DNA of 64,000 bases, from contig CM000429.1 of the NCBI GenBank assembly GCA_000165345.1, positions 320,001-384,000 on the forward strand, in the 5' to 3' direction. Numbering within the stretch: position 1 is the stretch's first letter; every line of letters starts with the position of its first letter. The notes beneath the pieces were generated by a model. The model did no database searches. It was not told the origin of the DNA and was given only the letters and a program-made list of their open reading frames with translations. Shown one piece after another: positions 27,962 through 62,784 of this stretch. The translations under genes were made by a program, and so were the position numbers.

Positions 27962-29959
27962 ATGGAGTTTTCTTCAAGCGAGTTCTTGGAAAAAATTATT
28001 CCATGTAGCGAAAAACTGGAAGCTTTACTCGGAGAATATGTCTCAGAGTGTATATTATGGAATGAGGTAAAACAGGTTTTTGAGTTAAATGGACAAAAGA
28101 TTAAGAAGTTTTCCGAAGAGATATCAAAAATTGAAATCTCTAAGACTGATATTATCCACTCAATTATGCTGGTATTAATAAAAAGGGAAGAACCTAATGA
28201 TGATAGCAAAATTGTCATGATGAAGGATAGACAAATTTTAATTTTATCTACAAGTACTTTATTCTTAGTTAATAGTGGATATTTCGATATCGTATTTTGG
28301 CTTGATATAATTTTAGATATCTCCAACCTTTTTAAAGTCCACGGATTGGTGGCATTTACCAAGTGGATTTGCGGATGTTTTGAAGAGTTTAACTGGGCAA
28401 TTTCTAATCCCAGTATTCCGTTTAATAAAAGAGGTTTGGCTGAGGAAGGTGTTGAGCAATCAACTTCTGGATGTGACCTTTCTCCTTCTGTAGCTGCTCA
28501 ACGACAACTTGCTCAGGCAAAATTTGTAGGTTTGTTAAAAGTAATCAGCAGAAGGCTCATTGGATATCGTTGCTTTATAGAGGCTGGCATGCTTAGAAGC
28601 TTTGTATTTTCAATACTTCCAAGCAACCAGGCAGGAATATGTAGGAAGGCTTTCACTCCTAGACCTTACTCTTCAGTAAATGTAGATGAACAAATGGAAA
28701 GTATTACTGAAGCTGTCACTTTAATAGATGACTTTGAAGCTCTCTCGGACAATGATACAGATAAGGAAGAGGGAGAAATGTCAAAAGAAAAAGAAGACTA
28801 TAATTCTGGTATTATTAAAAGCGACTTTCAGCATATTCTAGATCCCTCTAAATCTGTTAAAAGCGTATTTGAAGCTTATAAAAGAGTAGACAACTTTTTT
28901 CAAACATCAACTGATTTTCTGAATTCAATGATTGATAATTCAGAAACTTTGTCCTCTAGCAAAAAAAAACAAATTGATGATATATGTAAAGACGTTGAAA
29001 TGATTGTCTCATACTTTGAGGATTATAACTATATGGATATCCAGGACCCAGTGACTCATTTCCAAGGATTGGTCTCAACTTTAGAAGGAATTCCCTCAAG
29101 CTTAGAATCGCTTTATTTCAGAATTAATTTTGCATACAGATTTTCTTTTATAGTATGTTGCCAACTGAATCAAGTAATTGATGGTTGCAAGCATGCATGC
29201 GAATATATGCATAATAAAATGGTTCCTCTTTTAAAAAGATGCCTAGGATCAGTTGATAAATTTAAAAATAAAAATATTTCTTCTGCAACACTTTTTATTA
29301 ATCTTATGATTAAATATGAATTTCTTTGGCAAAGCTGGAAAAATAACAATTGTGTTGATATTTCTATTCCTCCAGAAAAACTTAAACCATTACTTGAAAT
29401 GACAAAATCTCCTACTGAGGAAAGAAATGACTCCAAGAAAAGAAGAATTGAAGAAAGTAAATGCGTTACGAAGTTCATTGATGATGAGACATTTAATAAA
29501 TATATGTCTTTCATTCAAAACTTTTCCAACTCTGATAGTAATAAAGATTCTGATTCTATTAAAATAAGAAATATAAATCTTCCAAACTTCACAACTGAAA
29601 GAGAATTGTTATATTTGGATCCCATTAATCTTGACTCATACTCTTCAAAGAGCGTAAATTCTAAGATTATTAGTAAATTTAATGACTATAAGGAAAAAAT
29701 TCTTATTGATTTAGACCCAGATAATGGAATTGATGAATCTGAAAAAAGTATCAAAGATCCTATAATTAGATGGAGATGCGACAGACTTTACAAGAGAATA
29801 CATTTAGATCGCTTAAACGAGCTCTCAGATATCCAACTATCAATCAGCAATGTTGAACATCTCATTCAAAATTGTGACACAGAAAAAAACAACAATTTAC
29901 CCAACACAGACAAATTTGAGTTTTTAAATATTTACTCTCCACTTGAGGATAACCAATAG
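27962..29959 (+). CDS. Hypothetical protein (665 aa)
   Basis: Continuous ORF with ATG start, in tandem 131 bp downstream of the previous gene. An E2F-like motif lies about 85 bp upstream. Confidence 0.55.
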   Translation: MEFSSSEFLEKIIPCSEKLEALLGEYVSECILWNEVKQVFELNGQKIKKFSEEISKIEISKTDIIHSIMLVLIKREEPNDDSKIVMMKDRQILILSTSTLFLVNSGYFDIVFWLDIILDISNLFKVHGLVAFTKWICGCFEEFNWAISNPSIPFNKRGLAEEGVEQSTSGCDLSPSVAAQRQLAQAKFVGLLKVISRRLIGYRCFIEAGMLRSFVFSILPSNQAGICRKAFTPRPYSSVNVDEQMESITEAVTLIDDFEALSDNDTDKEEGEMSKEKEDYNSGIIKSDFQHILDPSKSVKSVFEAYKRVDNFFQTSTDFLNSMIDNSETLSSSKKKQIDDICKDVEMIVSYFEDYNYMDIQDPVTHFQGLVSTLEGIPSSLESLYFRINFAYRFSFIVCCQLNQVIDGCKHACEYMHNKMVPLLKRCLGSVDKFKNKNISSATLFINLMIKYEFLWQSWKNNNCVDISIPPEKLKPLLEMTKSPTEERNDSKKRRIEESKCVTKFIDDETFNKYMSFIQNFSNSDSNKDSDSIKIRNINLPNFTTERELLYLDPINLDSYSSKSVNSKIISKFNDYKEKILIDLDPDNGIDESEKSIKDPIIRWRCDRLYKRIHLDRLNELSDIQLSISNVEHLIQNCDTEKNNNLPNTDKFEFLNIYSPLEDNQ

Positions 29960-31286: not shown

Positions 31287-32954
31287 TTAGATAGAACTTT
31301 TGTTTCTTGAGTGAAATCTTTGTATCCAACGTGAAAGCCTTTGCTCAGATTCGAAAATGATATCATCCCCTTTTCTGAAGGTTGTTGTACTTTTTATATT
31401 ACTTTCATTTATGCTGGAGTTCGATGAATTGCTCGAAATTCCTGAATAAACTGGTGTCCGGATGCTTTCTTCAACATTGGCTTCGTTTCCTATGATTAAT
31501 TGCCTTCTTACGTAACAAAGGCTTTGATCCTTAAAATCGGGGATGGGCTGTTTTTTTGGATAACATTTGTCTTTATGACCGTTTAATCTAGTCGGTGCAG
31601 TAACGGGTGAATACGCACATACCTTCGAATTTGATTTACAAAATACATCTGCAGATCCAGGAACGTTATCCTGGGACCCAAAATTGTATACAGGAGTTTT
31701 TCTCTTTGGAGTAATGTAAGATATCTTTTCATTTTCTTTCCCGGTAGAAATCCCTGTGTATTCTATTTTTTGTGAGACACCTTGATTTGAAACTCTTTTA
31801 TATTCTTGGTTAACTGAATTAACAGTATTTTGACTAATATTTTCATTATTTGAACATGCTATTCCAGTGCTAGCAGATGAATCGATAGATTCGTCTAGAG
31901 TAGATTCCTCTGGAATTATTTTCTTCCCAGATATTTGATCGCCTTTTAATAACGATTCTAGATAACGGTTATAACTAAGAATTTTTTGGTATTCATACAT
32001 TAGAAAATATAAATCCAGCTTTGGGGAGAGCTTTATAGTTTTATATTTAATGAAATCTAGATTGAATATTTCTTCTGCGGAAGGTCTTTTATGCGGATCC
32101 CTTTCAAACATCAGTTTCAATACTGAATTGAGCTCGCTAGAATAAAACTTTGGTAAATCAGGAACCAGACCATCCTTGACATACTTTCTTAGTTCATCAT
32201 AGCTTCTAGCGTAAAATGGAGGCCTTCCAGCTAAAATTTCATAGATACAACAACCCAACGACCAAATATCGCTTTTTTCATCATATTCACCTTTTCCAAG
32301 TACTTCTGGAGACATATAGTAAGGTGTTCCAACATGAGTGGTTGCTAGTTGGTTTCTTCCAGTTAAATATCTTGCAAGCCCAAAATCTCCCAATTTAACT
32401 ATCATAGTCTTTTGCTCAGGTTTATCAAGGTCTTTGTTAATTCTCGAACCCTCCTGTATTTTATTTTTAAGTTCAGGAGATGAAGAGGCTATTATAAAAA
32501 TATTTTGGGGCTTAATATCTCTATGTAGTACCCTATTGCTACGAGTATGACAATAATTTAGTGCGTCTAGAAGTTGAATAAATATTGAGATAACAGTTTC
32601 CTCGTCAATACTTAATCCTAACTTTTTCTTTTTCTTGAGAATATTTCCGAGGTCTCCTTCATCGCAGTACTCCATTATAATATAGATTTGTTGGTTTTGT
32701 TTGTCTATTATACGATCGATGTATTTAATTATATTTCTATGGTTTAATTTTCGAAGTACATTTACTTCATTAACTATTTGTATTTTTTCTTGCTGTGTCA
32801 TATTTTCATAACAAATTTTTTTCCAGACAAATAGCCTTCCATCTGACTTCCTCCTAATTTTATGCACTGTACCAAAACACCCCCTTCCTATTTCTTCAAT
32901 TTCTTCATAGTCTTCCTGGATGAATTGGTTTTTGTGCATGGCTTGTTTCTGCAT
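31287..32954 (-). CDS. NEK-family (NIMA-related) Ser/Thr protein kinase
   Basis: Glycine loop GRGCFGTV, VAIK-equivalent VWKK, HRDIKPQNIF, DFGLAR and GTPYYMSPE...SDIWSLGC. The non-catalytic C-terminal half is Ser/Asn-rich. An insert about 25 aa long sits between the catalytic loop and DFG. Confidence 0.85.
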   Translation of the reverse strand: MQKQAMHKNQFIQEDYEEIEEIGRGCFGTVHKIRRKSDGRLFVWKKICYENMTQQEKIQIVNEVNVLRKLNHRNIIKYIDRIIDKQNQQIYIIMEYCDEGDLGNILKKKKKLGLSIDEETVISIFIQLLDALNYCHTRSNRVLHRDIKPQNIFIIASSSPELKNKIQEGSRINKDLDKPEQKTMIVKLGDFGLARYLTGRNQLATTHVGTPYYMSPEVLGKGEYDEKSDIWSLGCCIYEILAGRPPFYARSYDELRKYVKDGLVPDLPKFYSSELNSVLKLMFERDPHKRPSAEEIFNLDFIKYKTIKLSPKLDLYFLMYEYQKILSYNRYLESLLKGDQISGKKIIPEESTLDESIDSSASTGIACSNNENISQNTVNSVNQEYKRVSNQGVSQKIEYTGISTGKENEKISYITPKRKTPVYNFGSQDNVPGSADVFCKSNSKVCAYSPVTAPTRLNGHKDKCYPKKQPIPDFKDQSLCYVRRQLIIGNEANVEESIRTPVYSGISSNSSNSSINESNIKSTTTFRKGDDIIFESEQRLSRWIQRFHSRNKSSI

Positions 32955-35510: not shown

Positions 35511-35625
35511 ACAAAGTCAACGGTATACAAATAAAACAAAGTTTTAGTTAATAAATTAAATCAAATGATTAAAGTTATATTACATATGAGTAGGCTTGCT
35601 AATAAAATTTAATAATTAATTGAAG

Positions 35626-38600
35626 ATGTTAGTTATTACAGAGAAAATCTATCATATAAAACTACTGGTGATATTTCTCGTAATAATAATCAAAATAGGC
35701 GTGGTAAATACTGAACATGATTTGGTTTGTCCAATTGGATATATTTTAGAAGGAAATCATTGTAAATTGTGCGAATCTGGTACATTTTCAAATAAAGAAA
35801 CAAATAGTTGTACAGCTTGTGGAGAAGGTAAATATTCATTTCCAGGAAGCTATTCTCAATCTTTATGTTTCCAATGCTCAATAGGAACTTACTCAGAAAA
35901 AGAAAAATCAAATAGCTGTGAAATTTGTCCAAATAATCAGATTACATCAACTATTGGTTCAACAAAAAAAGAGGATTGTTTTTGTATGCCTGGCTTTAAG
36001 CCAGCAAGTCTAAGAGATGAAACTTGCGTTCAATGCGCTTCAACTGAGTGGTGTTATAGAGTGTCTCCTAATTCCGGAGGGTTTTGGAATGTAGCATCTT
36101 ATTGCTATAGTGTAGATTTAAGTAAATATTCAAAAGACTCGACAACACATTTACTTTGTAATGATATGTCTTTGATGAGCTCAAAAACGGCAAATTTTCA
36201 AATTCCATGTTTTGGAAGTCAATGTGAAAGCTTATACAGGAATAACGAGGTAATTTCAAATAACAATATTAATTCACTTATGGTAGTTAGATGTAAAGAA
36301 GGCAGTTCTGGTTTCCTTTGCGATGATTGCGAGGATGGTTATGCAAAGATAGATGGGTTATTGGGAGAAGTTGGTTCATGCAAAAAATGCAGTTTATTGA
36401 ACTTCACGCCATTTATTTTAAGTAATTTATTTATTTTTGGTTTAATTATTTACTCTGTTTGGGTCTTGCGTTTGGAACCAACTGCAAATGAAGAAGAAAT
36501 GCCTATTGTTCAAGTTACAATTATTAGAACAACTATCCAACACATGCAGTTTCTGGGTCTGCTGATTACAACTAATGTGGTAAGGTTCGAGTATTTTCCA
36601 AATTTAACAGTTGCAATTTCATATTTAGGATCGAGTAACTCTTTTTTACCACTTTTTCAATGTTTATTGTCAAAGTTTGGTATTGATAGACATGGCCCAG
36701 AAGCTTTGAAGATATATTCAATTGTTATATCAACTATGCCTTTTCTCCTTATTATTTTTGCCATAATTGCTGCCCCAATTCTAAGATATTTTAGGGAGAA
36801 AGAGGTTAGAGGTTTTTTATTAGGACGACAAGAAATGGAAGGAGAATGTCTACAATTTCAGAAGTCATATTTTTCTTGGGTTTTTAGCTTATTTATTGTA
36901 TCCTTTTTCTGTTATTTTTCAATGAGTATCAAAAATATTTATTCAATTATTAGTTGTACATCGCTTAACATTGACATTCAAAACCCCACTAATTCATTAA
37001 TGGGTAGTTACGTAACGCCAGAAAGTATGAATTTATTTCAAAATACAAATAATGAAATTCCTGGATTATTATCGGTTGTTTCAATTGCGAAAGAAAATAT
37101 TTGTTGGAGTCATGGACATTTTGTCGCCATATTTTACTCTCTCATTGGTTTAGTCTTCTGGCATATTTTAATACCTATTGTATACTTGCTTTGCATTTAT
37201 TTTGATACAAAAAATGACAAAATTCAACGTAGGAGACTAGTATATGGGTGGTGGATAAGTGGATATGAAAATACAAATATGAATATTTGGGAGATCACTA
37301 CTTATTTGAGTCAAATAATTTACTTGATAGTGATACTCTTGATTGGAATACTTCATACATTTAATTACGTTGTTGCGTATTATGCAGTTCCGGGTGGCTC
37401 ACATTATGAGACTTTAAATCCGCTTTGTTCTCCAATTTTGTCATCATTTTGTTGTATTGTGTTGACTATTTCCTTGGACAGTATTTATAGCTTTGTGAGG
37501 CCAAATTCTCAAGACTTTTTGCGTACAGGCATTCAAAAAGTTGATATTTCTTCAGTAGGCGTCGAAGATGAACTACTAACAGAAGAACAAAAGCAAAAAC
37601 AGAAAGTTGCTTATGGAGGAGTGAATTCAAAACAAACAAGTAGATTGAATTGGAGTTCGTATTTTTATTTTATTCGTCGAATGTCAAGCTTTTCAATTAT
37701 TACAGTCATTTTTGCATCAATACTGCCAAGACTAAATGTAAACATAGAAAATAAGATTGAAAACCTTAGAGGAACATGGATAGATTCTGTGGATACAAGT
37801 CTTATACCACTGGGATATGGAGATTTTTCTATCCGTTTTTTTTCAATATTTTCAGTTATAGTAAATTATTTTTTTATTTTTATAATACTATTTTCGGTAT
37901 TAGGGATAAAGATATACAAAAGGGTTTTGCCGATGCTATCATCAAAATCAAAAGTAGAAGTAAATATCAAGTCAATGAGTGATTTTGCAAGCAGCTCCGA
38001 TTCAATTAAGCAAGTAAACAAGGGAAATCAAGTCAATGGAAGAATTTCTAATATTGGAAATGCATTTGTATCATATCATGATATGAACAAGACTAGTCAA
38101 ATAGGAGATCAAGATGGAGAAAGAGTTGATGACGAAATTTCAATAGAACAACTTATCAGAATGCACTTAAGAACGGATTGTCTGGGGTTTTTATCGCATG
38201 AAGATCGTGTATCTGTTGTGGTCGCAATAAAAAGATGTGATAATCGACAGGAAGGGTTGGCAATTTCACTTAGAGCAACATTAGATTCTAGATTCGGTGA
38301 AAGTGGTAAATATACGTTAATTGAAAATAATTTATTTGTTTGTGAGTCTCTAAGAAGCTATGGATTTTCAGATTTTGGAATGGAGAAATTGATTGAAGAT
38401 TTAATAGAGATACACATTTCTATCACAAACAGAATTAAAAGTGTTAGTAGGAACTCATTAAAAATGGCATTAGATTTATGTATTATTAATTATCCAGAAG
38501 TTGCACAAAAACTGGGCATGGAAGTGATAGTGCCTCCAGATTTGAATTTAAATAATATGAATGAGAAGTCAAACATTGAAACTAATAATAATACAGAGGC

Positions 38601-41600
38601 GTTATATTCCTTACATCTGAGGAAACTACTTGCAAGGCTAAGTTTAAATGCGCTGATCTTGGACATTAGTGATAACTTCTTTAGAATTCCAAGATCAATC
38701 CCTATTTCATTAAGATTAAAGCTAAATAGAGGAACAGGCCTACTGTTTTCTGAACCTAATTTAGAAAATAATGGAATAGAAAATATGGAATTGAACCACT
38801 CTTTGATTAATGAAGATACTAAGGACAAGAAATACAACGTACCTATTCCTGGGTATATTGAAGAGGAATATAATGAACCAAGATCTTTGGATGTTGACCT
38901 AATGTTATCCATAAAGAAATTAACAGAGTGTGACCCAAGAACTGTCTTGGAAGAAACCAGTCATCCAATAGCATTTGAAAAAGCGACAAGAAACTCGATT
39001 ACAAGTGATAAAGTATTACAGACTTTATTTTCATTAATAGAACCTGAGTTTAAGTCCCAACTTAGAAGTTCATTAGAGCTTAATAAAGAAGAATTAAAAG
39101 AGGGTATTGGAGAATTGGACAGAAATCAGGATGAGGAAATTGTTCAATTGTTGTTAGGACTAAATCCAGACGAAAATATTGGTAGCGAAACAATTCTAAC
39201 ATTACTTAATGATTTAGAAACCATTGGTAATAGTACTTCTGATTATATGGATAATAAATCTCATTTATCTGATTCAGAATTTCATTCCCCAGATGAACAT
39301 AAAGTTAGTTCAGTTTCCAAAAAAATAGGATTTTCTTTAAAAAATTTAAAGAATAAAAATAATACAAAAGGTGATATAGTTAATGAAGATAGTAATGCTG
39401 TTCAATCAAAGAACAAAATGTCTTTAAAGCTAAAAAATTCAATATATAATTTATTTCTACTTAGAGTATTGGATCTAAAGTCATGGTTAAGTCAGTATAG
39501 AAAGCAATATATTGAAGAAACTAATAAGAGAATGGAAAGTTTAAGACAGTACAATTATTTGAATTTTGATAATAATTTTACTATACCACAAGGAAATAAT
39601 ACTAGGAATACTTCAAATACTAGTTCAAGCATTGCAGATAATAATAATAGTAATACCAATGGAGTTAATGAAAATAATAATGGCACTATCAATAATAACT
39701 CAATTATTAAATCAAGTGAATTAGACGTAACAGCTGCTGCTTCTTATTCATCAAAAATAAGTATTGAAGCAAAAGAGAATTTAAAAATGATGACAGATTT
39801 GGTATCAAATTTAAATAGATACGCAAGTCCAAGCATGCTTTTTTATTATTTACAATTATGTAAAAGATTAAGTTTAGGTGCAGATTTTACAATGACTTCA
39901 TTAATACCAGATAATTTGTTGTATAAAGGCGTAATTAGCAATGAAGAGGCATTAAGATTATATAGAGAAATTAATCCTAGTTTGAATTTTAATGATAATC
40001 CTCTTGGCTTTGATGTCGCAACTATTCACGAATTTTCAGCATTGAATACACCTAATTTGAATTTAAAAAGAGAGTTGGAATTGACAATAGAATCACAAAG
40101 AGAGTTTAATATGATTTTTCCATCAGCATTGCCATGTATACATTCAATATTTTGGGTTCCTTTTGATATTTATGATGATGACAATTTATGGATAATTCAA
40201 AGTAGAGAAAGACAGAATATTTCTCAGTTACTAGATTGTTTATCAAAGGATCATCCACAAATAATAGAATTACCATATATTGATGAAGAAGCTATGGATG
40301 AAAAAATGGAATGCGTAGAATTTGATAAAAATGACCAAGGCCTAACTAAACAAACATTGTATACATTATTACCACAAATTTCAAATAATGGAGGAATTGA
40401 AGATGGTTCTTGGCTTTGGAGTGAATTACCGATCAGATTTGCAATTGATTTAAATGGTTTAACAATTAGAAAGATGCATTCATCCTCAAATTATCCAAAA
40501 AGCATTTATTTATCTGGAAACCCATTATCAGTTTTAGGTCCTCAATCACCTCAATGGGCATTTATGAGCCATAAATCAGATAGAATTAATTATTTAAATG
40601 GAGTTTGCACTTTGAATTATAATATTATTAATAACAATAATAATAATAATAATATAGATTTTGATTCAAGCACAATATTTGGTGATCAAGCAATAATTGT
40701 TGCCCCAGGTATAGAAGTTAAAGGAACATCATTTACAATTGAAGTTTGGGTGAAATTGCCCCCGTTGTTTGATAAATTGGAAGAAATTAAAGAAGAAAAA
40801 GAATCGGATTCAGAAGTAAAAAATCAAAAAAGTAAATCAAAGTCTAAATCAAGAGCTAAAAGCAGAACAAAAATGGAGGGAAGAATTAGTTCAAGAGCAA
40901 AAAGTAAAAAGAAAAAAGTAGATATGCTATCTTCAAATAAAGATAAAAATCAATCATTATTAAGTCTAAGTAAATTACAAAAGAAACTTGTTGAAATAAA
41001 AGGAGGGAAAGAAGAAGATGATGAAAATGAACAAGCAAGTCTTGATGGAACAAATTCAGAAATCAGTGGAATTCAAAAAGAATCAGATGATTTAAATAAT
41101 GTTAATATGAAGAAAAAATTAGAATTACCAACATTACAAGTCCTATGTAGTACTGATGCAATGGAAGGATTATTTACAGTACATAGACCAACAGGAACAA
41201 TAGGATTTTGGGATAGTAATGGAAGATTTTTAAAATGCGTAATTAAGAATGATCAAAAAGAAATAAATAAGAATGAAATGCAATTTAAAAATTCTTCTTA
41301 TGTTGCATCTAATATTGCAACATTGCAAAATATTTATTCACAATTAGGATTGATAAAAAGAAGTACCTATTGCAAAGAAACTAATCAAGATATTGAACAA
41401 TTTATTAATTACATTGAAGATCCATTAATTCTTGATCCATGGGTTTTAGTACATATTGTTTATAATATGGGATCAATAAAATATTATGTAAATGGTAGGT
41501 TTATTGGTTCAATTAGAAAACCAAATGGTTTAAAAGGTGATATATCAGTAATTGGAGGAGGATTAGAAAGTGGATCAGGATGGGGTTATTTTAGTCAATT

Positions 41601-44600
41601 TAGAGTTTATGGAGTGCATACAAGTAATGAACAAATAAAAAGACGTTATGAATCATATATTTCACTCAATTCAGATAATTCATTTATTACTAAAATTAAT
41701 AAATTAACATCATCAACAATTAATTGGGCATTAACATTATGGAGAAGTGGTGCTGTAGGATTTTTCATATGGAAATATAGTCAAATAAATTTAAAACAAA
41801 ATGATGTTACGTATTTAATAGAATTAATTAATAGAAAAAGAAATGTTTTATGTAATGGAGATATTGTTGATGAGTCAGATAACGATAATAGCAATTTAAA
41901 AAATGGAATATTACTATTTGGTGTAATTATTAGAATATTAAAAGGAGAAAGATCTTTTCCATATTATTATGTATATGAACCATTACCCTATTTAGAAAGT
42001 ATTCAAGATGAGAACAGTGAAAAAAATGAATCAAATAATAAAATACAATTATCACCCATGAAATATAAAATGACTTCAATAACATCACAATTAGGGTATA
42101 GAATAACCGAAGATTATAAGAAAATTAAATTAGATAATGAAAAAGTATATAGAATGAACCCATTATTTTATCAGCCAAGTATAGTACCTGGCCCAGGAAT
42201 GTCAGAGTGTTTATTATTAGCATTTAACACAAAAAGTAATAATTCTGGATTATTGATAACACCACCAATTGAGTTGCAGAAAAAAATTATAAATAAAAAT
42301 AGAAATGCAAAGAATTCTATGAATAAAGATGATCAGAAAAAAAAAGGTAATGGTTTATTGAATGGTAATTTTGATGAAAAAAATGATGAAATATCAGAAA
42401 TTTCAGAATGTTATAATGGTTGGACAATAACTGTATGGTTTCATTATCCATTACTAACAAATTATTCATATACAATAAATAATTCTTCGAATCAAAATGA
42501 TGAGGATATGGTTACGAATAATTCCAAGAAAAAATCTAACTCAGATATTGATCATTATATAGTATTAGTAACGGGTAAAAATGATTCACATATAATAATA
42601 AATGAAAATATGGATGTTGGAGTATACAAAAACTTTTCACAGATCAGCAATAATAATATTAATATTAATAATAATAATAATAGTAATAATAGTAGTAATA
42701 ATAATAATAATTATAATTATTATAATAATTATAATAATAATAATAATAGTAATAATAATAATAATAATAATTACAATAATTACAATAATAATTATTATAA
42801 TAATAATTATTATAATAATTATAATAATAATATTAATATTAATAATAACAATTATATTAATAATAATACAAGCAATTATATTGAAAAGGGCTTTTATTCA
42901 TCTGGGTTTAATTTAAATAAATCAGAATTGCCTATCGGTTGGCATATGTTAACGGTTGTCGGTAAACCAAGAATGGAATATACAAAAACGGAAGATGAGA
43001 AAGAAAGGAGTATAGTTGGAGGAGGAGGATTAGGTTTCACGGAAATTACTAAGCCTATGCAGAAAAATATTAATTTATCAACACAATATAAGTGGTGCCA
43101 AGAATTTTATATTGACGGACAAATTATGGGTATTAGCTCATATTGTACCCATGAAAGTATTGTTATGATTGGAAATAGTTTATTTTTAGAAAATGCATTT
43201 GGAATATTTACATGTCCAAGAATTTTTAGTCACTCATTCTCACCGATGGAAATACATACTGATTTTTTGTCTTACAATTATTTAATAAAAGCAGGAAGTT
43301 GGAATTCAAAAGATGATATTTTATTACAATTTGATTATAACTCTATTACAAAGGAATTTCGTGTATTAGAAAATCCAAGCAACAAATTAAGATATATTTA
43401 TAATTTTGGTTCATCCCAATACTCGAATAAATATGATCAATTAAAAAATGTAACAAAAGACAGACGAAAAAAGAAAAAAAAACAATTATTAGAGGGAAAC
43501 TTGGAAATTGATGACCAATCTTATTGGTTAGATGAGATGGAATGCCAATCACCTTTGTTTAATTATATTGAAACATTTTTGAATAATAACTCATTTGATA
43601 ATGAAGCTAAATATATAATGGCAATAAGTAATAGCATGATTAATCAATCTGAAAGTGAAAGTAATAATAATAATGATAGTGCTAGCAATAATGTTAAAAC
43701 AAATAAGATTAATGATATTCTTGAAAATTTTTCAAATATTAACAAAAATAATAAAGAAGAAGTATGCCAAATAAATGTAAAAAATAATGGCATTATTACT
43801 ATTCATAGAGGGCCAACCAATGAAAATATATGTATTGACCCAACTCAAATTTTTATTCTAGAAAAAAAATCGGGATATTCGACAGAAGGTGGGAGTGTAA
43901 TATTAGAAAGGCCAGTAAGATTAAGTAAGAATTGGTCATGTGAAGTTTGGTTTTATGTTCCTTTTGAGATAACATTTCATCCTTATTGTTTGATATCAAA
44001 TAGTGACGGTATAGGATTTATTGTAATAGGTTTAAATGGTGAATTGGGATCAATACAAAGAAAAATAACAAATATGTATGAAAATAATGGTGTGATTTCT
44101 AAGAAAAATAATAAATATGATTCAAAAGGATATGAAAAGAATAATAATCGATTACAATTTTTATCTTGGGATGTAAATTTGAGAGATCATGTTGATGTTG
44201 GTTGGTACCATATGGTTGTTACATTTAATACAACGCAAAATAACACAATAACAACTTATATTAATTCTCAATGTATTGGAAAGAAGATGAATGCGTTTGA
44301 ATTACCACATCATCAAAGTCCATGGATTGACTGTATTGGTAATTTAAAATCATTCAAAGGAAATTACATTGCACCATTTGGACTATTTGGGCATTTAAAA
44401 ATATATGATTTTGCATTGTCTACGATAGAGGTCGGATTATTGTACAAAAGTTGGATGTGCCATAAAAATTTAAAGAAAGAAATATTAAATCGTCACATTA
44501 AACAAGAAAAATCTGCAATAACTAAGAACTACACTTTGTACAAAAATTTAATGAACAAAAATAATAATTTCAAGGAAGAGGAACGATCTGAAAACAAGGA

Positions 44601-44652
44601 TACGCACGATAAAGGTTTAGATCTCAATACAGATTCAGACTCAGAAGCTTAA
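35626..44652 (+). CDS. Giant multidomain membrane protein (3009 aa): signal peptide, TNFR/ephrin-receptor-like Cys-rich repeats, ~10-TM block, three ConA/LamG-like domains
   Basis: A single 9 kb ORF. The N-terminus MLVITEKIYHIKLLVIFLVIIIKIGVV is a signal peptide or anchor. Residues about 35-240 carry repeated C-x2-C...C-x-C-x-G-x-[FY] modules (CPIGYILEGNHCKLCESGTF, CTACGEGKYSF, CFQCSIGTYSE, CEICPNNQ). Many hydrophobic helices fall between about aa 260 and 760. The C-terminal 1400 aa hold three segments with the LamG_3/pentraxin-like signature (aromatic-h-h-V-h-Y...Y-h-N-G): FTIEVWVKLP...WVLVHIVYNMGSIKYYVNGRFIGS; GWTITVWFHYP...GWHMLTVVGK...EFYIDGQIMG; WSCEVWFYVPFE...VGWYHMVVTFN...YINSQCIGK. 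Confidence 0.8.
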   Translation: MLVITEKIYHIKLLVIFLVIIIKIGVVNTEHDLVCPIGYILEGNHCKLCESGTFSNKETNSCTACGEGKYSFPGSYSQSLCFQCSIGTYSEKEKSNSCEICPNNQITSTIGSTKKEDCFCMPGFKPASLRDETCVQCASTEWCYRVSPNSGGFWNVASYCYSVDLSKYSKDSTTHLLCNDMSLMSSKTANFQIPCFGSQCESLYRNNEVISNNNINSLMVVRCKEGSSGFLCDDCEDGYAKIDGLLGEVGSCKKCSLLNFTPFILSNLFIFGLIIYSVWVLRLEPTANEEEMPIVQVTIIRTTIQHMQFLGLLITTNVVRFEYFPNLTVAISYLGSSNSFLPLFQCLLSKFGIDRHGPEALKIYSIVISTMPFLLIIFAIIAAPILRYFREKEVRGFLLGRQEMEGECLQFQKSYFSWVFSLFIVSFFCYFSMSIKNIYSIISCTSLNIDIQNPTNSLMGSYVTPESMNLFQNTNNEIPGLLSVVSIAKENICWSHGHFVAIFYSLIGLVFWHILIPIVYLLCIYFDTKNDKIQRRRLVYGWWISGYENTNMNIWEITTYLSQIIYLIVILLIGILHTFNYVVAYYAVPGGSHYETLNPLCSPILSSFCCIVLTISLDSIYSFVRPNSQDFLRTGIQKVDISSVGVEDELLTEEQKQKQKVAYGGVNSKQTSRLNWSSYFYFIRRMSSFSIITVIFASILPRLNVNIENKIENLRGTWIDSVDTSLIPLGYGDFSIRFFSIFSVIVNYFFIFIILFSVLGIKIYKRVLPMLSSKSKVEVNIKSMSDFASSSDSIKQVNKGNQVNGRISNIGNAFVSYHDMNKTSQIGDQDGERVDDEISIEQLIRMHLRTDCLGFLSHEDRVSVVVAIKRCDNRQEGLAISLRATLDSRFGESGKYTLIENNLFVCESLRSYGFSDFGMEKLIEDLIEIHISITNRIKSVSRNSLKMALDLCIINYPEVAQKLGMEVIVPPDLNLNNMNEKSNIETNNNTEALYSLHLRKLLARLSLNALILDISDNFFRIPRSIPISLRLKLNRGTGLLFSEPNLENNGIENMELNHSLINEDTKDKKYNVPIPGYIEEEYNEPRSLDVDLMLSIKKLTECDPRTVLEETSHPIAFEKATRNSITSDKVLQTLFSLIEPEFKSQLRSSLELNKEELKEGIGELDRNQDEEIVQLLLGLNPDENIGSETILTLLNDLETIGNSTSDYMDNKSHLSDSEFHSPDEHKVSSVSKKIGFSLKNLKNKNNTKGDIVNEDSNAVQSKNKMSLKLKNSIYNLFLLRVLDLKSWLSQYRKQYIEETNKRMESLRQYNYLNFDNNFTIPQGNNTRNTSNTSSSIADNNNSNTNGVNENNNGTINNNSIIKSSELDVTAAASYSSKISIEAKENLKMMTDLVSNLNRYASPSMLFYYLQLCKRLSLGADFTMTSLIPDNLLYKGVISNEEALRLYREINPSLNFNDNPLGFDVATIHEFSALNTPNLNLKRELELTIESQREFNMIFPSALPCIHSIFWVPFDIYDDDNLWIIQSRERQNISQLLDCLSKDHPQIIELPYIDEEAMDEKMECVEFDKNDQGLTKQTLYTLLPQISNNGGIEDGSWLWSELPIRFAIDLNGLTIRKMHSSSNYPKSIYLSGNPLSVLGPQSPQWAFMSHKSDRINYLNGVCTLNYNIINNNNNNNNIDFDSSTIFGDQAIIVAPGIEVKGTSFTIEVWVKLPPLFDKLEEIKEEKESDSEVKNQKSKSKSKSRAKSRTKMEGRISSRAKSKKKKVDMLSSNKDKNQSLLSLSKLQKKLVEIKGGKEEDDENEQASLDGTNSEISGIQKESDDLNNVNMKKKLELPTLQVLCSTDAMEGLFTVHRPTGTIGFWDSNGRFLKCVIKNDQKEINKNEMQFKNSSYVASNIATLQNIYSQLGLIKRSTYCKETNQDIEQFINYIEDPLILDPWVLVHIVYNMGSIKYYVNGRFIGSIRKPNGLKGDISVIGGGLESGSGWGYFSQFRVYGVHTSNEQIKRRYESYISLNSDNSFITKINKLTSSTINWALTLWRSGAVGFFIWKYSQINLKQNDVTYLIELINRKRNVLCNGDIVDESDNDNSNLKNGILLFGVIIRILKGERSFPYYYVYEPLPYLESIQDENSEKNESNNKIQLSPMKYKMTSITSQLGYRITEDYKKIKLDNEKVYRMNPLFYQPSIVPGPGMSECLLLAFNTKSNNSGLLITPPIELQKKIINKNRNAKNSMNKDDQKKKGNGLLNGNFDEKNDEISEISECYNGWTITVWFHYPLLTNYSYTINNSSNQNDEDMVTNNSKKKSNSDIDHYIVLVTGKNDSHIIINENMDVGVYKNFSQISNNNININNNNNSNNSSNNNNNYNYYNNYNNNNNSNNNNNNNYNNYNNNYYNNNYYNNYNNNININNNNYINNNTSNYIEKGFYSSGFNLNKSELPIGWHMLTVVGKPRMEYTKTEDEKERSIVGGGGLGFTEITKPMQKNINLSTQYKWCQEFYIDGQIMGISSYCTHESIVMIGNSLFLENAFGIFTCPRIFSHSFSPMEIHTDFLSYNYLIKAGSWNSKDDILLQFDYNSITKEFRVLENPSNKLRYIYNFGSSQYSNKYDQLKNVTKDRRKKKKKQLLEGNLEIDDQSYWLDEMECQSPLFNYIETFLNNNSFDNEAKYIMAISNSMINQSESESNNNNDSASNNVKTNKINDILENFSNINKNNKEEVCQINVKNNGIITIHRGPTNENICIDPTQIFILEKKSGYSTEGGSVILERPVRLSKNWSCEVWFYVPFEITFHPYCLISNSDGIGFIVIGLNGELGSIQRKITNMYENNGVISKKNNKYDSKGYEKNNNRLQFLSWDVNLRDHVDVGWYHMVVTFNTTQNNTITTYINSQCIGKKMNAFELPHHQSPWIDCIGNLKSFKGNYIAPFGLFGHLKIYDFALSTIEVGLLYKSWMCHKNLKKEILNRHIKQEKSAITKNYTLYKNLMNKNNNFKEEERSENKDTHDKGLDLNTDSDSEA
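42648..42872 (+). repeat. (AAT)n-rich trinucleotide microsatellite coding poly-Asn/Tyr/Ile inside the giant gene
   Basis: AATAATAAT...TATAATTAT repeats encode NNNINNNNNSNNSSNNNNNYNYYNNYNNNNN... over about 75 codons. Confidence 0.9.
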
Positions 44653-44747: not shown

Positions 44748-46427
44748 TTATTTATTGTTGATTTTACTATTAAATTGATGAATCATCATATCATTTGAAA
44801 TTAAATCTTTAAGCAAATCAAGTTTGTTTAGTATTTCTCCAACGTTGTTATGAAATTTGTTAAATTGACCATTGTTATTATTACTAGTAAATGTGATAAT
44901 TCCAGCTGGCTGATTAATTTTTGCAGAAAAAATACCCCTCTCAACGAGATGATTGACAACAAGCTGCAACTCTTGGCCATCCAAATTTAATAAATCTTGT
45001 ACTCTTTGGAATGAAATAGTTTTATAATAGCAAGAAATAATTGAAATGTTTCTCTCTTGAATTCTTTGCATGAACAGAGTAAATCTGTCTTTTTTGTTGC
45101 AAAGATTGATTTTGCATCTTTTATATTCTGTGTAGTACACATTATTCATTTCATAATCGTTGTTAGAGAAAAAGAAGCAATTTGATAGCTGATTAAAATA
45201 CTTAGGAACTGTATAGTTGAAATTTTTTGTTGATTCCAGGAATATGAGCTCGTTATTAATATAATCATTCAGTAAGTCTGAAATATATTGGACATTTCTT
45301 TCAATATGCTTCTGATAATCTTTGTTAAATTTAATTAGTTCATCTCTAATATTGGTTGAGTAAGGACCAAGAATGAGGTAAATGACATATCCTTCAATAC
45401 ATGAAGCAGTAGTTGGCATTTTCTCAGAAAAATTATATTGAGAAATAGGGGACTTCATATATTCTGGAATCTCACCGATTAGTTTTTCATAGCTATTCTC
45501 AGTGTCATTCTCAAAATTTGCAATTGAGTTGAGAAGGTTTAGAAAGCACATAGAAATTTCCTTGGGGCTTTGTTCGTAGTGCCATAAAATGATTAGGTAT
45601 TGATAATATATTACCTTAAGATCGATGAATTTTTCGATAATTTTCGGGTTTATCTTCTTGGCAAATATTTGAAGTCTAACAAAGTCTTTGCATAATAAGG
45701 AAAGTCTCATCTGCTCAAGTACGTATTGAGTTTTCTCCCTAAGATCCATATTTCCAATGGTTTCTACAGTTATATCTTCTAGAAGTTTAGAGGCCTCCTT
45801 CAAGTCATTATCTTCCTGTTTAATATTGCTGAGAATGAGCATCAATCTTGCCCTCTCGAGCTCCAGATATATCTTACCTTGAGTAATCTCACTTAGAATT
45901 GTGATAATTTTGTTACATTCCAGCATATTCTTGATTTCGTAGGAAATACTCCTATAAGATTCTTCTAAATTTGTTACGGTCTCAATATGTTTCCTAGAAG
46001 AGTTGTACTTTGCAAAATTGGGACTTAGAGCGACTATGGAATCAACTACGAGGTTTAAGAATAGTTGGATAATATATGATATCACCTTTTTAAGTTGGCT
46101 TCTTTTCTTACAAATTTTCTGAATGACTGATAGAGGTTCATCAATATTTTTAGAGTATTTTAGAAGCCACAAAATAATTTTATATATTATTTTACAGCTA
46201 GAATTCGAATCAGAAACTTGCCTGCATTTTTTCTCTAAAACCAATAATTCTTCGACAGCATTCTGAAAGTTCACTTCATTAACTCCAGCATTTTCCAATT
46301 TGGTAATTAAGCTATCCGTTTCTGCAGACAAGTCTTGGGTGCATTTTGGGTCTTTCACCAGAGATTCTAGTTCTGATATTGGATTCACAGTTTCATTCAA
46401 TTGTTCTCTAGTATTTTGGTCTTGCAT
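44748..46427 (-). CDS. RPN5: 26S proteasome regulatory (lid) subunit RPN5/PSMD12 (PCI domain)
   Basis: LSEITQGKIYLELERARLMLILSNIKQEDNDLKEASKLLEDITVETIGNMDLREKTQYVLEQMRLSLLCKDFVRLQIFAKKINPK matches human PSMD12 [83 protein letters not shown]. The C-terminal PCI/winged helix reads ISCYYKTISFQRVQDLLNL...AGIITF. Confidence 0.9.
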   Translation of the reverse strand: MQDQNTREQLNETVNPISELESLVKDPKCTQDLSAETDSLITKLENAGVNEVNFQNAVEELLVLEKKCRQVSDSNSSCKIIYKIILWLLKYSKNIDEPLSVIQKICKKRSQLKKVISYIIQLFLNLVVDSIVALSPNFAKYNSSRKHIETVTNLEESYRSISYEIKNMLECNKIITILSEITQGKIYLELERARLMLILSNIKQEDNDLKEASKLLEDITVETIGNMDLREKTQYVLEQMRLSLLCKDFVRLQIFAKKINPKIIEKFIDLKVIYYQYLIILWHYEQSPKEISMCFLNLLNSIANFENDTENSYEKLIGEIPEYMKSPISQYNFSEKMPTTASCIEGYVIYLILGPYSTNIRDELIKFNKDYQKHIERNVQYISDLLNDYINNELIFLESTKNFNYTVPKYFNQLSNCFFFSNNDYEMNNVYYTEYKRCKINLCNKKDRFTLFMQRIQERNISIISCYYKTISFQRVQDLLNLDGQELQLVVNHLVERGIFSAKINQPAGIITFTSNNNNGQFNKFHNNVGEILNKLDLLKDLISNDMMIHQFNSKINNK

Positions 46428-46899: not shown

Positions 46900-48933
46900 T
46901 CATTGCTCTAGATTTTCTTCGTCTTTGCTTTCCGAACTTGAATTAAAATCAACAGAATTGTTGCTTTTAAAAGTTTCCATCTGTTGGTTGAATAAATCCC
47001 AGACATTTCTATTAGGCTGATAAAGTTTGGAGTCTGAATTACACATGATTACATTACCATTCATATAGCCAATAAAAAGCCTGGTTCCATCCATCGACCA
47101 ACTAATACAAGTAGGGATATCAGAGGTGTTAGGGATAGAATTTGTGGTGGTAGAACATGATGTATTGATTTTACACAAAGGAGTTTGACAATTTGAGTTT
47201 GTGAGATCATATATAATCAATTTTGAGTCAGCATCAATTGCAGCAAAAATTCCAGGATGCACTGGATGCCAAGCTACATCAATAACATAGTTCTCAGATG
47301 ATTCAAAGGTATAAAGGAGGGTGAATGAACTAGCAAGTGGGTTTGGAATCCACAGTTTAATGGTCCAATCTGCTCCGGAGCTAAGAAAACAATCATTTAT
47401 TGGGTGATAGTCAAGGGAAGTAATGTAGCCATTATGCGCATTTTGAAATGTGCTTGAAATTACACCAGGCTTGTTAGTTTTAATCATTGTTTGATAGAGA
47501 GAGCCATCCTCAGAACCACAAATAATTGCATTTGGATTAATTAGCTTAGAAAGTGTCATGCACTGGATTGATACATCTTTTGAATTGGTTTTCCTTAATT
47601 GAAAAGACTCTACTGGCTCACTCAAGTTAGTTAAGTTCCAATTACAAAGTTTTCCATCCGTGTCAATTGTTATAATACTTTGAGAGCCTTTGCTGCCGAG
47701 AAGCTCCATACAATAAATTGGGAATGAGTGACCACCAATATTGTTCCCTTCGGAATCACTAATATTAATACTATTCGACTTTTGGCAAGGAATCTTTCCG
47801 CTTCTCGAATCCCAAATTAAAATTTCTCCATTATAGCTAGTTCCAATATACTTATATTGGCAATATGGGTCAAATGAAATAGTTAAAACTGGGCTTGAAG
47901 CAATAAATGTATTTTCCGGGTTTTTTGGAGTTGAAATGGACCAAAGCTGTACACAACCTCCATAATCGAACATAGTTCCACTACCCATATTTTGTTTCAT
48001 CCCTTCAAAACTTGAGTTTTGCGAAAATTTTGTTCCATAGGCTACAATAAAATATTCAGGGAAGGTAGGATGGCTTTTAATATTCATTACGGGGCGGTTA
48101 GATGAAGTTTCGTGCTGAAAAATCATACTATTTTTAAGCAATCCATTACTTGATGAAAAGCTAATATTACCCGGGTTCTTTGCTGAACCATCATTTTCAG
48201 ATGATAGATTTGATTCTGCAACCTCACTATTTATATTGAAAAATGGGTTGAAAACAGCACCCTCTCCCAAAGCTCTCTCAATTAATCTAGAAGCTCTTGA
48301 GAAGAAGTCCATAAACTCGCTACTTTTTAATATTTCATTATTATTCTCCACACTAATTGTTCCACCAGAGGGGGAGTATTTCTCTTCGTTTGTGTCAATC
48401 CTCATGACTAAAGGTTTGCTAGACTCGGAAACAGTTTCATTTTGGTGTAAATCTGCTGGACTCAGAGGTATGGATATAGAAAGATGTTTGTTTGAACCTC
48501 CAGTAGTGTGATTCTTCAAACCAGTATAGCGATCCGGAGCTACACCCAGTTGACTACTCTGAATAAGGTCCGCTTGAATTCCTTTATCAAATGTATCTTT
48601 TGTCGTTTCAAGAATATTTAGATCCACCTCCCCAATCAGTTTTTTCAATGCAGAACCTGGCCCTCGTAAATTATCTTCTAATGATTCAGGACCTATATCG
48701 CCCATTGCTGCTAAATTAAGGCCGTTAAATTGTTCCTCATTCCCTGTAAACAGAGAGTCGCTCAGTCCACCTTCGCTCAGAATGGAATTAACTATTTTAT
48801 CTACATCTTCTTCAAAACCTTTAGATTGATCGCAGTAATTCTTACTATAATCATCTAATAATTTTCTTTGAGATTTTAAGGTACTCTGGTGTTCCCTAAT
48901 AAGATCCTGAATTCTATTAGTCTTATTCTCCAT
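46900..48933 (-). CDS. Cytoplasmic dynein intermediate chain (WD40)
   Basis: The C-terminal WD repeats align with DYNC1I2. [26 protein letters not shown] matches [83 protein letters not shown] matches [53 protein letters not shown]. The N-terminus is a coiled coil. Confidence 0.85.
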   Translation of the reverse strand: [677 protein letters not shown]

Positions 48934-49534
48934 TTATGTAGCTGGAAAAAACTCAAATAATCAAGAATTTAATACCATGAAGTACTCAGAATATTAAAGC
49001 GTGTTCCTTCAATACCCATATCAAATTAATTGTCATTAGCCTCTGTTCTCAAGAATCACCAATGCAAATATTGATGTATTAAGAGATATTTAACCCCACA
49101 TCTGTCCGCCCGCCAGCTCTAGTGGCGGTATCATGTATTCATTTTTTTTCCAATAGCTATATCAATAAGGAAACAATTATGATAAGATAAAATCACAAAA
49201 ACAATCTTGAATATCAAGTTGAAAGTCTTTAGTAAATTATTGATTCATTTGATTATTTTTTGTATGAGACTTTTTCTTTAATAAATGATAATTTGCCGTT
49301 CAGCGGGTATTGGGGGGAAATCACGGTATTACACAAAATTGAATTTTTGAGCTGTTTGATAAAAGTTCTTTAAATAAAGACTCAAGTTAGATTCATAATT
49401 TTTATTAAAGATTAGTAAAATTTTTACTAGATAGGTGCTAGTCCTGAAGAATCAAGTATTTTCTTTTTGGAATGCAGAAATATTGATTTTGAGCTTTAAG
49501 TTAACGAGGTTGGAGCCTAATTTAATTGATTAAA

Positions 49535-51481
49535 ATGACAGCCTCCGAAAGATTGAAACAGATTTTGGAAAATAACCTTGAATCAAATTTTGAGAATTCT
49601 GAAGACTTAGAAGAGACTTTTAACGAATGGAGTGTAAATGGGAACTATGATGTGAAGAATATCCAAGAATCTAATTTAAACATTCTTCATGCTTTAAGTC
49701 AGAGGGAGATAATACATATAATGGACAGGGTTTTGGGCGGAGATAGCTTTGAAAATGTATTAGAAGAGATTGCGAAGGAATACCTTGGAGATGCCTGGTC
49801 TGCTTCTACAACTAATGCTGGCGAGAAAAACCTTAAGATTGAGGCGAAAAGTAAATTTGAATCCGGAGATAATGAAATGGCTGATGTGGCGCAGGATTTT
49901 GACGAGGAATTATGCAACTCAGAGGAATTTGTTACACTGTCCCAAAATGTACCTTTGAGAATTGACCATAACGAAAGACAGCTTTTAAAGCTAGTGGAGG
50001 GAACGCTGGAGGTCAGCAAATATACCGACAGAGTGGATATTGGATCAGCATCTAGGTCAAAGATGATTGTGAACGAAATAAGACAAGTTTGCGCAATTTT
50101 GAGCGGACTGGCCGTATCATTTGATTATGAGCTTGGCCAAAGGCTCATTAAGGATAGAAGTTTCAGTGAAAATGAGAAATTCTTTCAGACAGTTTTTGAG
50201 ATTGCAAGGAGATATAAAATGTTAAATCCTGAGACGATGAGGGACTCTTATGGAAAACTAGTTTTTTTATTGATGGATGCACAGAAAGAAAGTATCAGAG
50301 AGCTCCTGCAGTTTAGATGCTACAAGCCTGTGTTAACGGTTTATGAATTTCTTAAGAGTAAAAATTGCTTGGACGTTTTGAGCGATCCATTACTTCCAAT
50401 AGCTACGCGTAATGTCGAGCAGGTTGATGATGTAAACATTCTCAATTCAAAGCTGACAAAGAAACGACTTGCAATCAAAGAGTTACTGAGGAGATACGCA
50501 TCTAAGGACTATTCTGAGCAATGCAATAAAAAATCTACATCTCGTGGTTTTTATAATTTATTTATGCTCGGGAGGTCAAACCAAACACAAGAAACGGAAA
50601 TAAGTAATCAGTCTGGTATAGTTACAACTACAGGAAGCTTGGAAAATCTTGAAAAGACCCAAGAAACGAAGGATATCACTGTTGAGGAGCTTGAAATGTG
50701 TATATACTCTCTTAATGATCACGATGTTTTCCTATACTATAACAAACGTCCCATCGACAAGATGATCGAGTACTTGACAACTTTCTTCAACCCTCACAAA
50801 GAACAATCTAGGGATCTAAGTCTTTCTCTTGTTAGCGATCCGAACTCGACTGCAAGGCTTAGCCATGATCATTCGCGCCAATACCACTATGTACTGCAAA
50901 GCCTTACAATGTGGCGCGAGGTCCTTTTTAATATGATTAGATTGTGGAGGCTTGCAGAAGATGATTTACTTGATGGAAACAACGGATATAGGCTTGGAGA
51001 TACTGGTCAAGGTATCCACAGAATTCAATCTGCTCCTAGACTCTATAGAGCAATGTGTGAGATTATATCAAAAGTGCAGCGCGAAGTAGGAAACTGGGTA
51101 GGATCTTCTGTAATTCACCTTGGAGATAGGACAGTACCTAACGCTCTCGTTTTTATTGATAAATATCTTCAGGTGCCAAAAATATTAACTCCAATAGTTT
51201 TGTGTATTGAGAAAATAGATAAACTTTCTAATTCAAGCATTCATTTGAAGATATTTATTGAAAATTCGTTTGGAGGAGTCTTAAGTCTTAAACAGCAAAT
51301 TCTTGTAGATTTTTTCAAGCATGGGTTCGATGGCGGTGGAGCCGATAATTTCTTCGACGCAGGCTCTTGTATCGACGGTAGACTCACATCCGCATGGAAC
51401 TGGTGTTCAAATATAGAAAAGAAACCATACTTTCCAATTTTCCTACTAACAGGATTCGTCGGATTCGACGGGAAGTTCTAA
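49535..51481 (+). CDS. Conserved-looking hypothetical protein (649 aa)
   Basis: ORF from first ATG (MTASERLKQILENN...). The ORF-track start is TTG. No family is assigned. Confidence 0.55.
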   Translation: MTASERLKQILENNLESNFENSEDLEETFNEWSVNGNYDVKNIQESNLNILHALSQREIIHIMDRVLGGDSFENVLEEIAKEYLGDAWSASTTNAGEKNLKIEAKSKFESGDNEMADVAQDFDEELCNSEEFVTLSQNVPLRIDHNERQLLKLVEGTLEVSKYTDRVDIGSASRSKMIVNEIRQVCAILSGLAVSFDYELGQRLIKDRSFSENEKFFQTVFEIARRYKMLNPETMRDSYGKLVFLLMDAQKESIRELLQFRCYKPVLTVYEFLKSKNCLDVLSDPLLPIATRNVEQVDDVNILNSKLTKKRLAIKELLRRYASKDYSEQCNKKSTSRGFYNLFMLGRSNQTQETEISNQSGIVTTTGSLENLEKTQETKDITVEELEMCIYSLNDHDVFLYYNKRPIDKMIEYLTTFFNPHKEQSRDLSLSLVSDPNSTARLSHDHSRQYHYVLQSLTMWREVLFNMIRLWRLAEDDLLDGNNGYRLGDTGQGIHRIQSAPRLYRAMCEIISKVQREVGNWVGSSVIHLGDRTVPNALVFIDKYLQVPKILTPIVLCIEKIDKLSNSSIHLKIFIENSFGGVLSLKQQILVDFFKHGFDGGGADNFFDAGSCIDGRLTSAWNWCSNIEKKPYFPIFLLTGFVGFDGKF

Positions 51482-62604: not shown

Positions 62605-62784
62605 AGCGACATAAATTTTTATTTTCGATTAAATAAATTCTTTGGTTGTGGAATTCTCATATATTAGTGTTTTTAACAAAAAGTGAATATTAGTTTATGA
62701 ATAGTTAGAATATAATTTTAAAAAAAAAATTAATCCGGAAAATTTCAACAAGTTAAAAATAGACCCTTTCTGGGATTTAAAAAG

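Follow-up and report, generated by a model that had tools for sequence, protein, structure and literature searches.

A Cryptosporidium parvum protein with a CRMP-type membrane core and a conserved, probably cytosolic tail of ConA-like domains

The window analysed here is a stretch of 64,000 nucleotides (nt) of the Cryptosporidium parvum genome (GenBank assembly GCA_000165345.1, contig CM000429.1, positions 320,001 to 384,000 of the forward strand). Its subject is a 9-kb gene on the plus strand, CPATCC_000266 / XP_627992.1, which encodes a giant membrane protein. Judged by its sequence, the protein belongs to the alveolate cysteine repeat modular proteins (CRMPs), a superfamily of polytopic receptor-like proteins, and its core is homologous to CRMP cores. 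Within that superfamily it is best read as part of a third lineage, common to Cryptosporidium and the cyst-forming coccidia, with neither CRMPA nor CRMPB as its one-to-one orthologue. The core is followed by a tail of 2240 amino acids (aa) that carries three ConA-like domains and is probably cytosolic. The predicted parts, with positions in the window and predicted transmembrane helices abbreviated TM, are as follows.

35626..44652, plus strand: complete single-exon coding sequence, 3008 aa and stop; C. parvum CPATCC_000266 / XP_627992.1
35626..35709, plus strand: N-terminal signal peptide or hydrophobic leader, aa 1-28 (Kyte-Doolittle peak of 2.4 at aa 8-26; annotation of EAK88440.1)
35710..36399, plus strand: Cys-rich ectodomain, aa 29-258, with 23 Cys (10%), PF07699 repeats and a DUF7630-like module
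36400..37908, plus strand: nine-helix core, aa 259-761 (hydropathy; hhalign to published CRMP cores)
Within the core, plus strand, from hydropathy: TM1 aa 259-281, TM2 aa 294-316, TM3 aa 364-386, TM4 aa 413-435, TM5 aa 499-521
Within the core, plus strand, from hydropathy: TM6 aa 556-578, TM7 aa 599-621, TM8 aa 686-706, TM9 aa 739-761
38128..40605, plus strand: conserved mid-tail, aa 835-1660, 0.7-0.9 identity among Cryptosporidium species
40573..41670, plus strand: ConA-like / Laminin_G_3 domain 1, aa 1650-2015 (PF13385, 30.7 bits without its insert)
40774-41109, plus strand: Lys/Ser-rich insert in domain 1, aa 1717-1828 (bounds from the orthologue alignment)
42178..43335, plus strand: ConA-like domain 2, aa 2185-2570, supported indirectly (collinear profile matches to the second LamG domain of Neospora; BLASTP; alignment)
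42649-42868, plus strand: (AAT)73 tandem array of the poly-Asn/Tyr insert in domain 2, aa 2341-2417
43768..44520, plus strand: ConA-like / Laminin_G_3 domain 3, aa 2715-2965 (PF13385, 28.7 bits)

The reading frame is open over 35620..44652 (plus strand), and the ATG at 35626 is followed through 3008 codons to a stop. A first description of the locus, made without database searches and referred to below as the sequence-only reading, had proposed a single exon of about 9 kb encoding 3009 aa. The uninterrupted open reading frame (ORF) stands, while the count had included the stop codon. Because the translation matches the annotated C. parvum proteins KAL5370392.1, EAK88440.1 and QOY43476.1 (CPATCC_000266) with 100% identity over 100% of its own length, the single-exon model is the accepted one and the gene is real and already annotated. 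It is also found on the chromosome-sized record CM109961.1 (880,728 bp). Its GenBank product name is 'extracellular membrane associated protein', and EAK88440.1 is annotated 'with a signal peptide'. Database lengths vary between 3008 aa in C. parvum and 2989 and 2961 aa in C. hominis, and orthologues from seven Cryptosporidium species share 41-74% identity overall. The exact sequence is included as CPATCC_000266 / XP_627992.1 in the S1 and S3 Tables of Singer 2023 (PMC9815656), where Cryptosporidium is credited with two putative CRMPs that are 'far more variable'. The gene is therefore already known, and loosely classified as a CRMP.

The predicted signal sequence and the roughly 200 aa of cysteine repeats that follow it, both of which the sequence-only reading had recognised, are borne out. 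Ephrin_rec_like (PF07699, GCC2/GCC3) matches in two stretches with 38.3 bits against a Pfam cut-off of 23.1, the best at aa 75-118. Directly before TM1, aa 222-255 resemble the juxtamembrane DUF7630 module with 16.4 bits, below cut-off; the same module scores 65.6 bits in TgCRMPA and 18.2 bits in TgCRMPB, so that the C. parvum protein is comparable to TgCRMPB. DUF7631 lies upstream of DUF7630 and scores 58.7 bits in TgCRMPA and 60.1 bits in TgCRMPB. The C. parvum protein and the one from Besnoitia have no match to it at E<=1, and the Neospora orthologue has none even at E<=10. At E<=1, PF07699 and the weak DUF7630 are the sole Pfam matches of the whole protein; Kringle, MAR and C-type-lectin families were not matched. 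Membership of the ephrin receptors or of TNFR proper was rejected because the Cys module is the only part held in common.

The hydropathy profile of aa 259-761 contains eight strong Kyte-Doolittle peaks and a weaker, conserved one at TM2, giving nine helices, and nine peaks are likewise present in the C. muris and Neospora caninum orthologues. The peak at TM2 rises from 1.08 in C. parvum to 1.41 in C. muris and 1.79 in Neospora. A dense polytopic block had been described here with about ten helices; the block holds, with nine helices by hydropathy. Profile alignment by hhalign of seven Cryptosporidium orthologues (aa 30-800) with the CRMP cores of Toxoplasma gondii (Tg), Plasmodium berghei, Cardiosporidium and Paramecium gave a probability of 99.4% and E 1.5e-21 over 420 columns. 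TM1-TM6 are aligned one to one with TgCRMPA. Cysteines of the exoplasmic loops are conserved with TgCRMPA (QCLL/DCLL, SCT/DCT and ICW/ECT), as is a cytosolic loop motif, RLxYG..GY..WE, and BLASTP recovers the TgCRMPA core at E 4e-8 and TgCRMPB at E 1e-7.

In the CRMPs of Plasmodium, Toxoplasma and ciliates, EGF/ephrin-receptor-like modules rich in Cys precede a multi-pass core, which in Apicomplexa has nine helices (PMC9670195, PMC9815656), and the 'conserved core' of Singer 2023 is formed by a pair of EGF-like domains along with the transmembrane domains (PMC9815656). The C. parvum protein has the same features, with Cys modules before the membrane, nine hydropathy helices and homology of the core sequence. 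The claim of the sequence-only reading that no characterised family has such an architecture consequently does not hold for head and core, since a Cys-rich head joined to a polytopic core defines the CRMP family and the protein itself is listed in the S1 Table of Singer 2023. Membership of the G-protein-coupled receptors (GPCRs), considered since TgCRMPa has been called GPCR-related, was rejected because there are nine helices rather than seven, and the Pfam matches at E<=1 are just those given above. CRMPs have themselves been described as not bona fide GPCRs (Sparvoli 2022, PMC9670195).

When a profile of aa 820-1670 was scored against 1.84 billion representative proteins, its only match outside Cryptosporidium was BESB_035680 of Besnoitia besnoiti (E 2.7e-6), and a search with BESB_035680 led to Neospora caninum NCLIV_051540 / BN1204_051540. 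Both are uncharacterised and go under the name 'hypothetical'. Both coccidian proteins have their parts in the order of the C. parvum protein: an Ephrin_rec_like head, a DUF7630-like module, nine helices, the mid-tail blocks and Laminin_G_3. The Neospora protein has three PF13385 stretches (60.6 bits in total) and is collinear with that of C. parvum in the head, in the mid-tail blocks and in the LamG domains; the Besnoitia record is partial and ends past the first LamG. These orthologues of the same layout make the term 'lineage-specific', used in the sequence-only reading, too strong. They differ from the C. parvum protein in being shorter (up to 2406 aa) and GC-rich, in having a large charged insert in the cytosolic TM3-TM4 loop, and in lacking about 550 aa of the C. 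parvum mid-tail and the poly-Lys and poly-Asn inserts.

In phmmer searches with the core region of the C. parvum protein, those of Neospora and Besnoitia reach 65-69 bits and TgCRMPA only 14.8 bits, a result that recurs in the reverse direction. CRMPA (BESB_084890) and CRMPB (BESB_019000) are present in Besnoitia as separate genes. Because the core scores favour the Neospora and Besnoitia proteins, and because Besnoitia keeps its own CRMPA and CRMPB, the lineage is best regarded as a separate, CRMP-like one; the C. parvum protein is not a reciprocal best match of CRMPA or CRMPB, orthology being judged from the scores. The coccidian genes of this lineage lie outside the data set of Singer 2023. 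A Toxoplasma counterpart was not recovered by the search with BESB_035680 or by a search with a mixed Cryptosporidium/coccidian tail alignment, the latter returning no homologue at all, with low-complexity words suspected of filling its candidate list. TGME49_253930 and TGME49_207875, both named 'GCC2 and GCC3 domain-containing', are candidate Toxoplasma counterparts only.

The other reported Cryptosporidium CRMP (CPATCC_001478 / XP_625616.1; S3 Table of Singer 2023) also scores best against the third-lineage cores of Neospora and Besnoitia, weakly at about 17-18 bits, and had no match to the CRMPA and CRMPB cores in a small phmmer matrix. Cryptosporidium may for this reason lack one-to-one CRMPA and CRMPB orthologues. 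No account of a third CRMP lineage was found in the searchable literature. The word 'ConA' is absent from the text of both Sparvoli 2022 and Singer 2023, and 'laminin' from that of Singer 2023, so a tandem ConA-like tail appears to be undescribed for CRMPs. Set against the searchable literature, the third-lineage placement and a probably cytosolic tail with three ConA-like domains look new.

Among the seven Cryptosporidium species the tail is the best-conserved part of the protein, with identity of 0.8-0.9 in its conserved blocks versus 0.4-0.7 in head and core. The mid-tail (aa 835-1660) is probably helical. It contains the blocks LxLDxSDxxFxIxRxxP and HEF...FPxAxPCI, common to the Neospora and Besnoitia orthologues. 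Pfam yields nothing for it at E<=1, and by sequence it has no structurally solved relative. An AlphaFold2 (AF2) model of aa 820-1670 from seven orthologues was uninformative (predicted local distance difference test, pLDDT, 31).

Three LamG/ConA-like segments had been proposed from motifs, all eight of which occur at the places given for them. In the intact protein LamG has no Pfam match, because the inserts mask the domains from a whole-protein search. With the inserts excised, segments 1 and 3 pass the PF13385 cut-off of 27.6 bits at 30.7 and 28.7 bits, and the orthologues score 40-60 bits. Segment 2 has no direct match to PF13385 even then, and its identification as a ConA-like domain is supported indirectly through the Neospora orthologue. 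A hidden Markov model of segment 2 matches the second LamG of that protein in three collinear pieces, and the Neospora domain alone scores 34.2 bits across nearly the full PF13385 model. BLASTP matches segment 2 to Neospora LamG2 at E 3e-4 and to LamG3 at E 2e-5, and in a joint alignment it carries the hallmark C-terminal strands and motif of the other domains. Comparison of the three Cryptosporidium segments with each other by hhalign was insensitive (effective sequence number about 1.6) and aligned the hallmark strands alone.

Structure modelling among the LamG domains covered LamG3 only, from a paralogue-enriched alignment. The AF2 model has a predicted template modelling score (pTM) of 0.57, with core strands at pLDDT 70-84, and forms a two-sheet jelly-roll beta-sandwich, in agreement with Foldseek. 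In fold, LamG3 comes closest to CBM40 modules that bind sialic acid, to pentraxins and to the receptor-binding domains of neurotoxins, and a LamG-domain profile also matches tetanus toxin HC by sequence (E 1.2e-5). The low-complexity inserts, foreseen as one poly-Lys and one poly-Asn/Tyr, lie at aa 1717-1828 and aa 2341-2417. The (AAT)73 array of the latter could serve as a length-polymorphic typing marker; a shorter (AAT)13 array lies upstream of it at 40615-40654. Over 36000-44000 the gene has a sustained positive GC skew of 0.14-0.23 together with AT skew, which we read as a purine-rich coding strand combined with low-complexity Asn and Lys codons. GC content falls to 0.24 over the poly-Asn.

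A cleaved signal peptide, an extracellular head and nine helices would place the tail in the cytosol. The predicted cytosolic loops contain 27 Lys and Arg versus nine in the exoplasmic loops, six Lys or Arg follow TM9 within 30 aa, Cys makes up 10% of the head versus 1.2% of the tail, and the conserved loop cysteines lie on the exoplasmic side. For TgCRMPa, to which TM1-TM6 align, a cytosolic C-terminus and extracellular N-terminal domains have been reported (Sparvoli 2022, PMC9670195). From helix parity, charge bias, Cys distribution and this alignment, the tail with its three LamG domains is probably cytosolic, and we infer that the head lies outside the cell or in the lumen of a secretory organelle. 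The adhesin-type extracellular placement of the LamG domains implied by the sequence-only reading is accordingly probably not correct, and with the tail predicted to be cytosolic the domains are more likely an intracellular scaffold than host-binding lectins.

The architecture has partial parallels elsewhere. Toxoplasma CRMPa and CRMPb and Plasmodium CRMP1-4 resemble the C. parvum protein in signal peptide, juxtamembrane Cys modules, DUF7630-type module, nine-helix core, loop cysteines and the RLxYG..GY..WE motif. Compared with these CRMPs, its ectodomain is just about 230 aa, without the long N-terminal extension, and its very long tail carries three Laminin_G_3 domains. Work on CRMPs reportedly also includes that of Thompson in 2007. 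Laminin_G_3, pentraxin, CBM40 and clostridial neurotoxin HCN domains occur in secreted form or outside the cell, with sugars or Ca2+ as their usual ligands, whereas the C. parvum domains are predicted to be cytosolic, are Cys-poor and are split by long low-complexity loops; a cytosolic location of Laminin_G_3 domains would be atypical. Precedents are provided by BEACH proteins (neurobeachin, LRBA) with their ConA-like domain and by SPRY/B30.2, cytosolic ConA-like beta-sandwiches that mediate protein-protein interaction in membrane traffic, although these proteins are not polytopic membrane proteins. The adhesion GPCRs ADGRG4 and ADGRG6 carry PTX/LamG domains on the extracellular N-terminal side of seven helices; in the C. 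parvum protein there are nine helices, and LamG is on the C-terminal, predicted cytosolic side.

The window as a whole is about 30% GC with dense intron-less ORFs. The neighbours of the gene, all on the minus strand, are a protein kinase (31287-32954), a PCI protein of the PSMD12/CSN4 type (44748-46427) and a WD40 protein (46900-48933); beyond them on the plus strand, 49526-51481 encodes a DUF2009 protein of the non-canonical E2 ubiquitin-conjugating family (608 bits). As these flanking genes have unrelated housekeeping roles, nothing about the function can be read from the neighbourhood. The adjacent plus-strand ORFs 24678-27830 (1050 aa) and 27962-29959 (665 aa) have no Pfam match at E<=0.001. 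A 222-aa ORF (55948-56616, plus strand) lies antisense within a 930-aa ORF (55101-57893, minus strand) and probably arose by chance in AT-rich sequence, and ARAGORN places a tRNA-His (anticodon GTG) at 62784-62857 on the minus strand.

Rhoptry discharge and invasion depend on the TgCRMPs (PMC9670195, PMC9815656); features ascribed to CRMPs also include a complex formed with a partner CRMP and TSP-domain proteins and a transient localisation at the apex. The CRMP literature favours a sensing or signalling role (PMC9670195). By analogy with TgCRMPa and TgCRMPb, head and core of the C. parvum protein may detect a signal from outside at the apical membrane, and the tail, as a protein-protein scaffold, may couple that signal to the machinery of regulated secretion, for example rhoptry or microneme exocytosis; the tail would then not be a carbohydrate-binding adhesin. 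We favour this reading, a third-lineage CRMP with its head outside, its tail and LamG domains in the cytosol and cue-sensing linked to secretion by the scaffold, and hold it to be somewhat more probable than its negation. A bolder version is doubtful: that an unrecognised CRMP-like lineage, in substance a cytosolic scaffold of a helical region and three ConA-like domains, forms the main link from a minimal extracellular Cys-rich sensor to rhoptry or microneme exocytosis in Cryptosporidium, which appears to be without clear CRMPA and CRMPB orthologues. In that case a lectin fold would be employed on the inside of the membrane in signalling on host contact. Several observations weigh against the favoured reading. 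TM2 is weakly hydrophobic in C. parvum, and if it does not span the membrane the tail would lie outside the cell. The hhalign alignment stops short of TM7-TM9, DUF7631 is undetected though present in TgCRMPA and TgCRMPB, and confidence in the AF2 models is low to moderate. The closest folds, those of ConA-like, pentraxin and CBM40 domains, usually bind sugars outside the cell. Transfer of the rhoptry-discharge function is weak because the lineage is separate from CRMPA and CRMPB, and the searchable literature holds no publication on the C. parvum gene or its coccidian orthologues.

The protein might instead be the Cryptosporidium orthologue of CRMPA or CRMPB, paired with CPATCC_001478 in a conserved rhoptry-discharge complex, with the LamG tail as a lineage-specific addition. 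Its listing among the two putative Cryptosporidium CRMPs of Singer 2023 and the CRMP-type core confirmed by hhalign speak for this, but we judge it unlikely, given that best matches in both directions lead to a third coccidian gene, outside the Singer data set, which coexists with CRMPA and CRMPB in Besnoitia, and that the tail is collinear in Neospora and Besnoitia and so not specific to Cryptosporidium; the undetected DUF7631 and the variability that Singer et al. describe point the same way. That the C-terminal 2240 aa are extracellular after an even number of helices, the LamG/pentraxin-like domains acting as lectins or adhesins for host glycans or matrix as in the sequence-only reading, would agree with the weak TM2, the closest folds of LamG3 and the GenBank product name. 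It is improbable in view of nine helices in three species, with TM2 more hydrophobic in Neospora, the match of TM1-TM6 to a CRMP whose C-terminus is reported to be cytosolic, the charge bias with its basic stretch directly past TM9, the Cys-poor tail and its long Lys-rich and poly-Asn inserts. Least probable, and by our estimate a slim prospect, is a nine-helix channel or transporter with the tail as a regulatory or anchoring appendage and the head as a structural cap. Polar or charged residues are conserved within the helices, R/K and H in TM2 of Cryptosporidium, Neospora and TgCRMPA being examples, and the core is the sole part conserved from ciliates to apicomplexans, but for the whole protein no transporter or channel family is matched in Pfam at E<=1 and no structurally solved relative is found by sequence, and the literature on CRMPs leans towards sensing.

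CRMPs are among the few conserved surface components known to license rhoptry discharge and invasion in Apicomplexa, and Cryptosporidium has a single rhoptry. If the favoured reading of a sensor with a conserved cytosolic ConA-like scaffold is correct, the tail would provide a handle on the intracellular partners of the secretion trigger. Should the function prove unrelated, a cleaner annotation of a 9-kb gene would still result. A third lineage would correct the two-clade picture of the CRMPs and direct attention to a gene of Toxoplasma or Neospora, as yet unstudied, that is more tractable than its Cryptosporidium counterpart.

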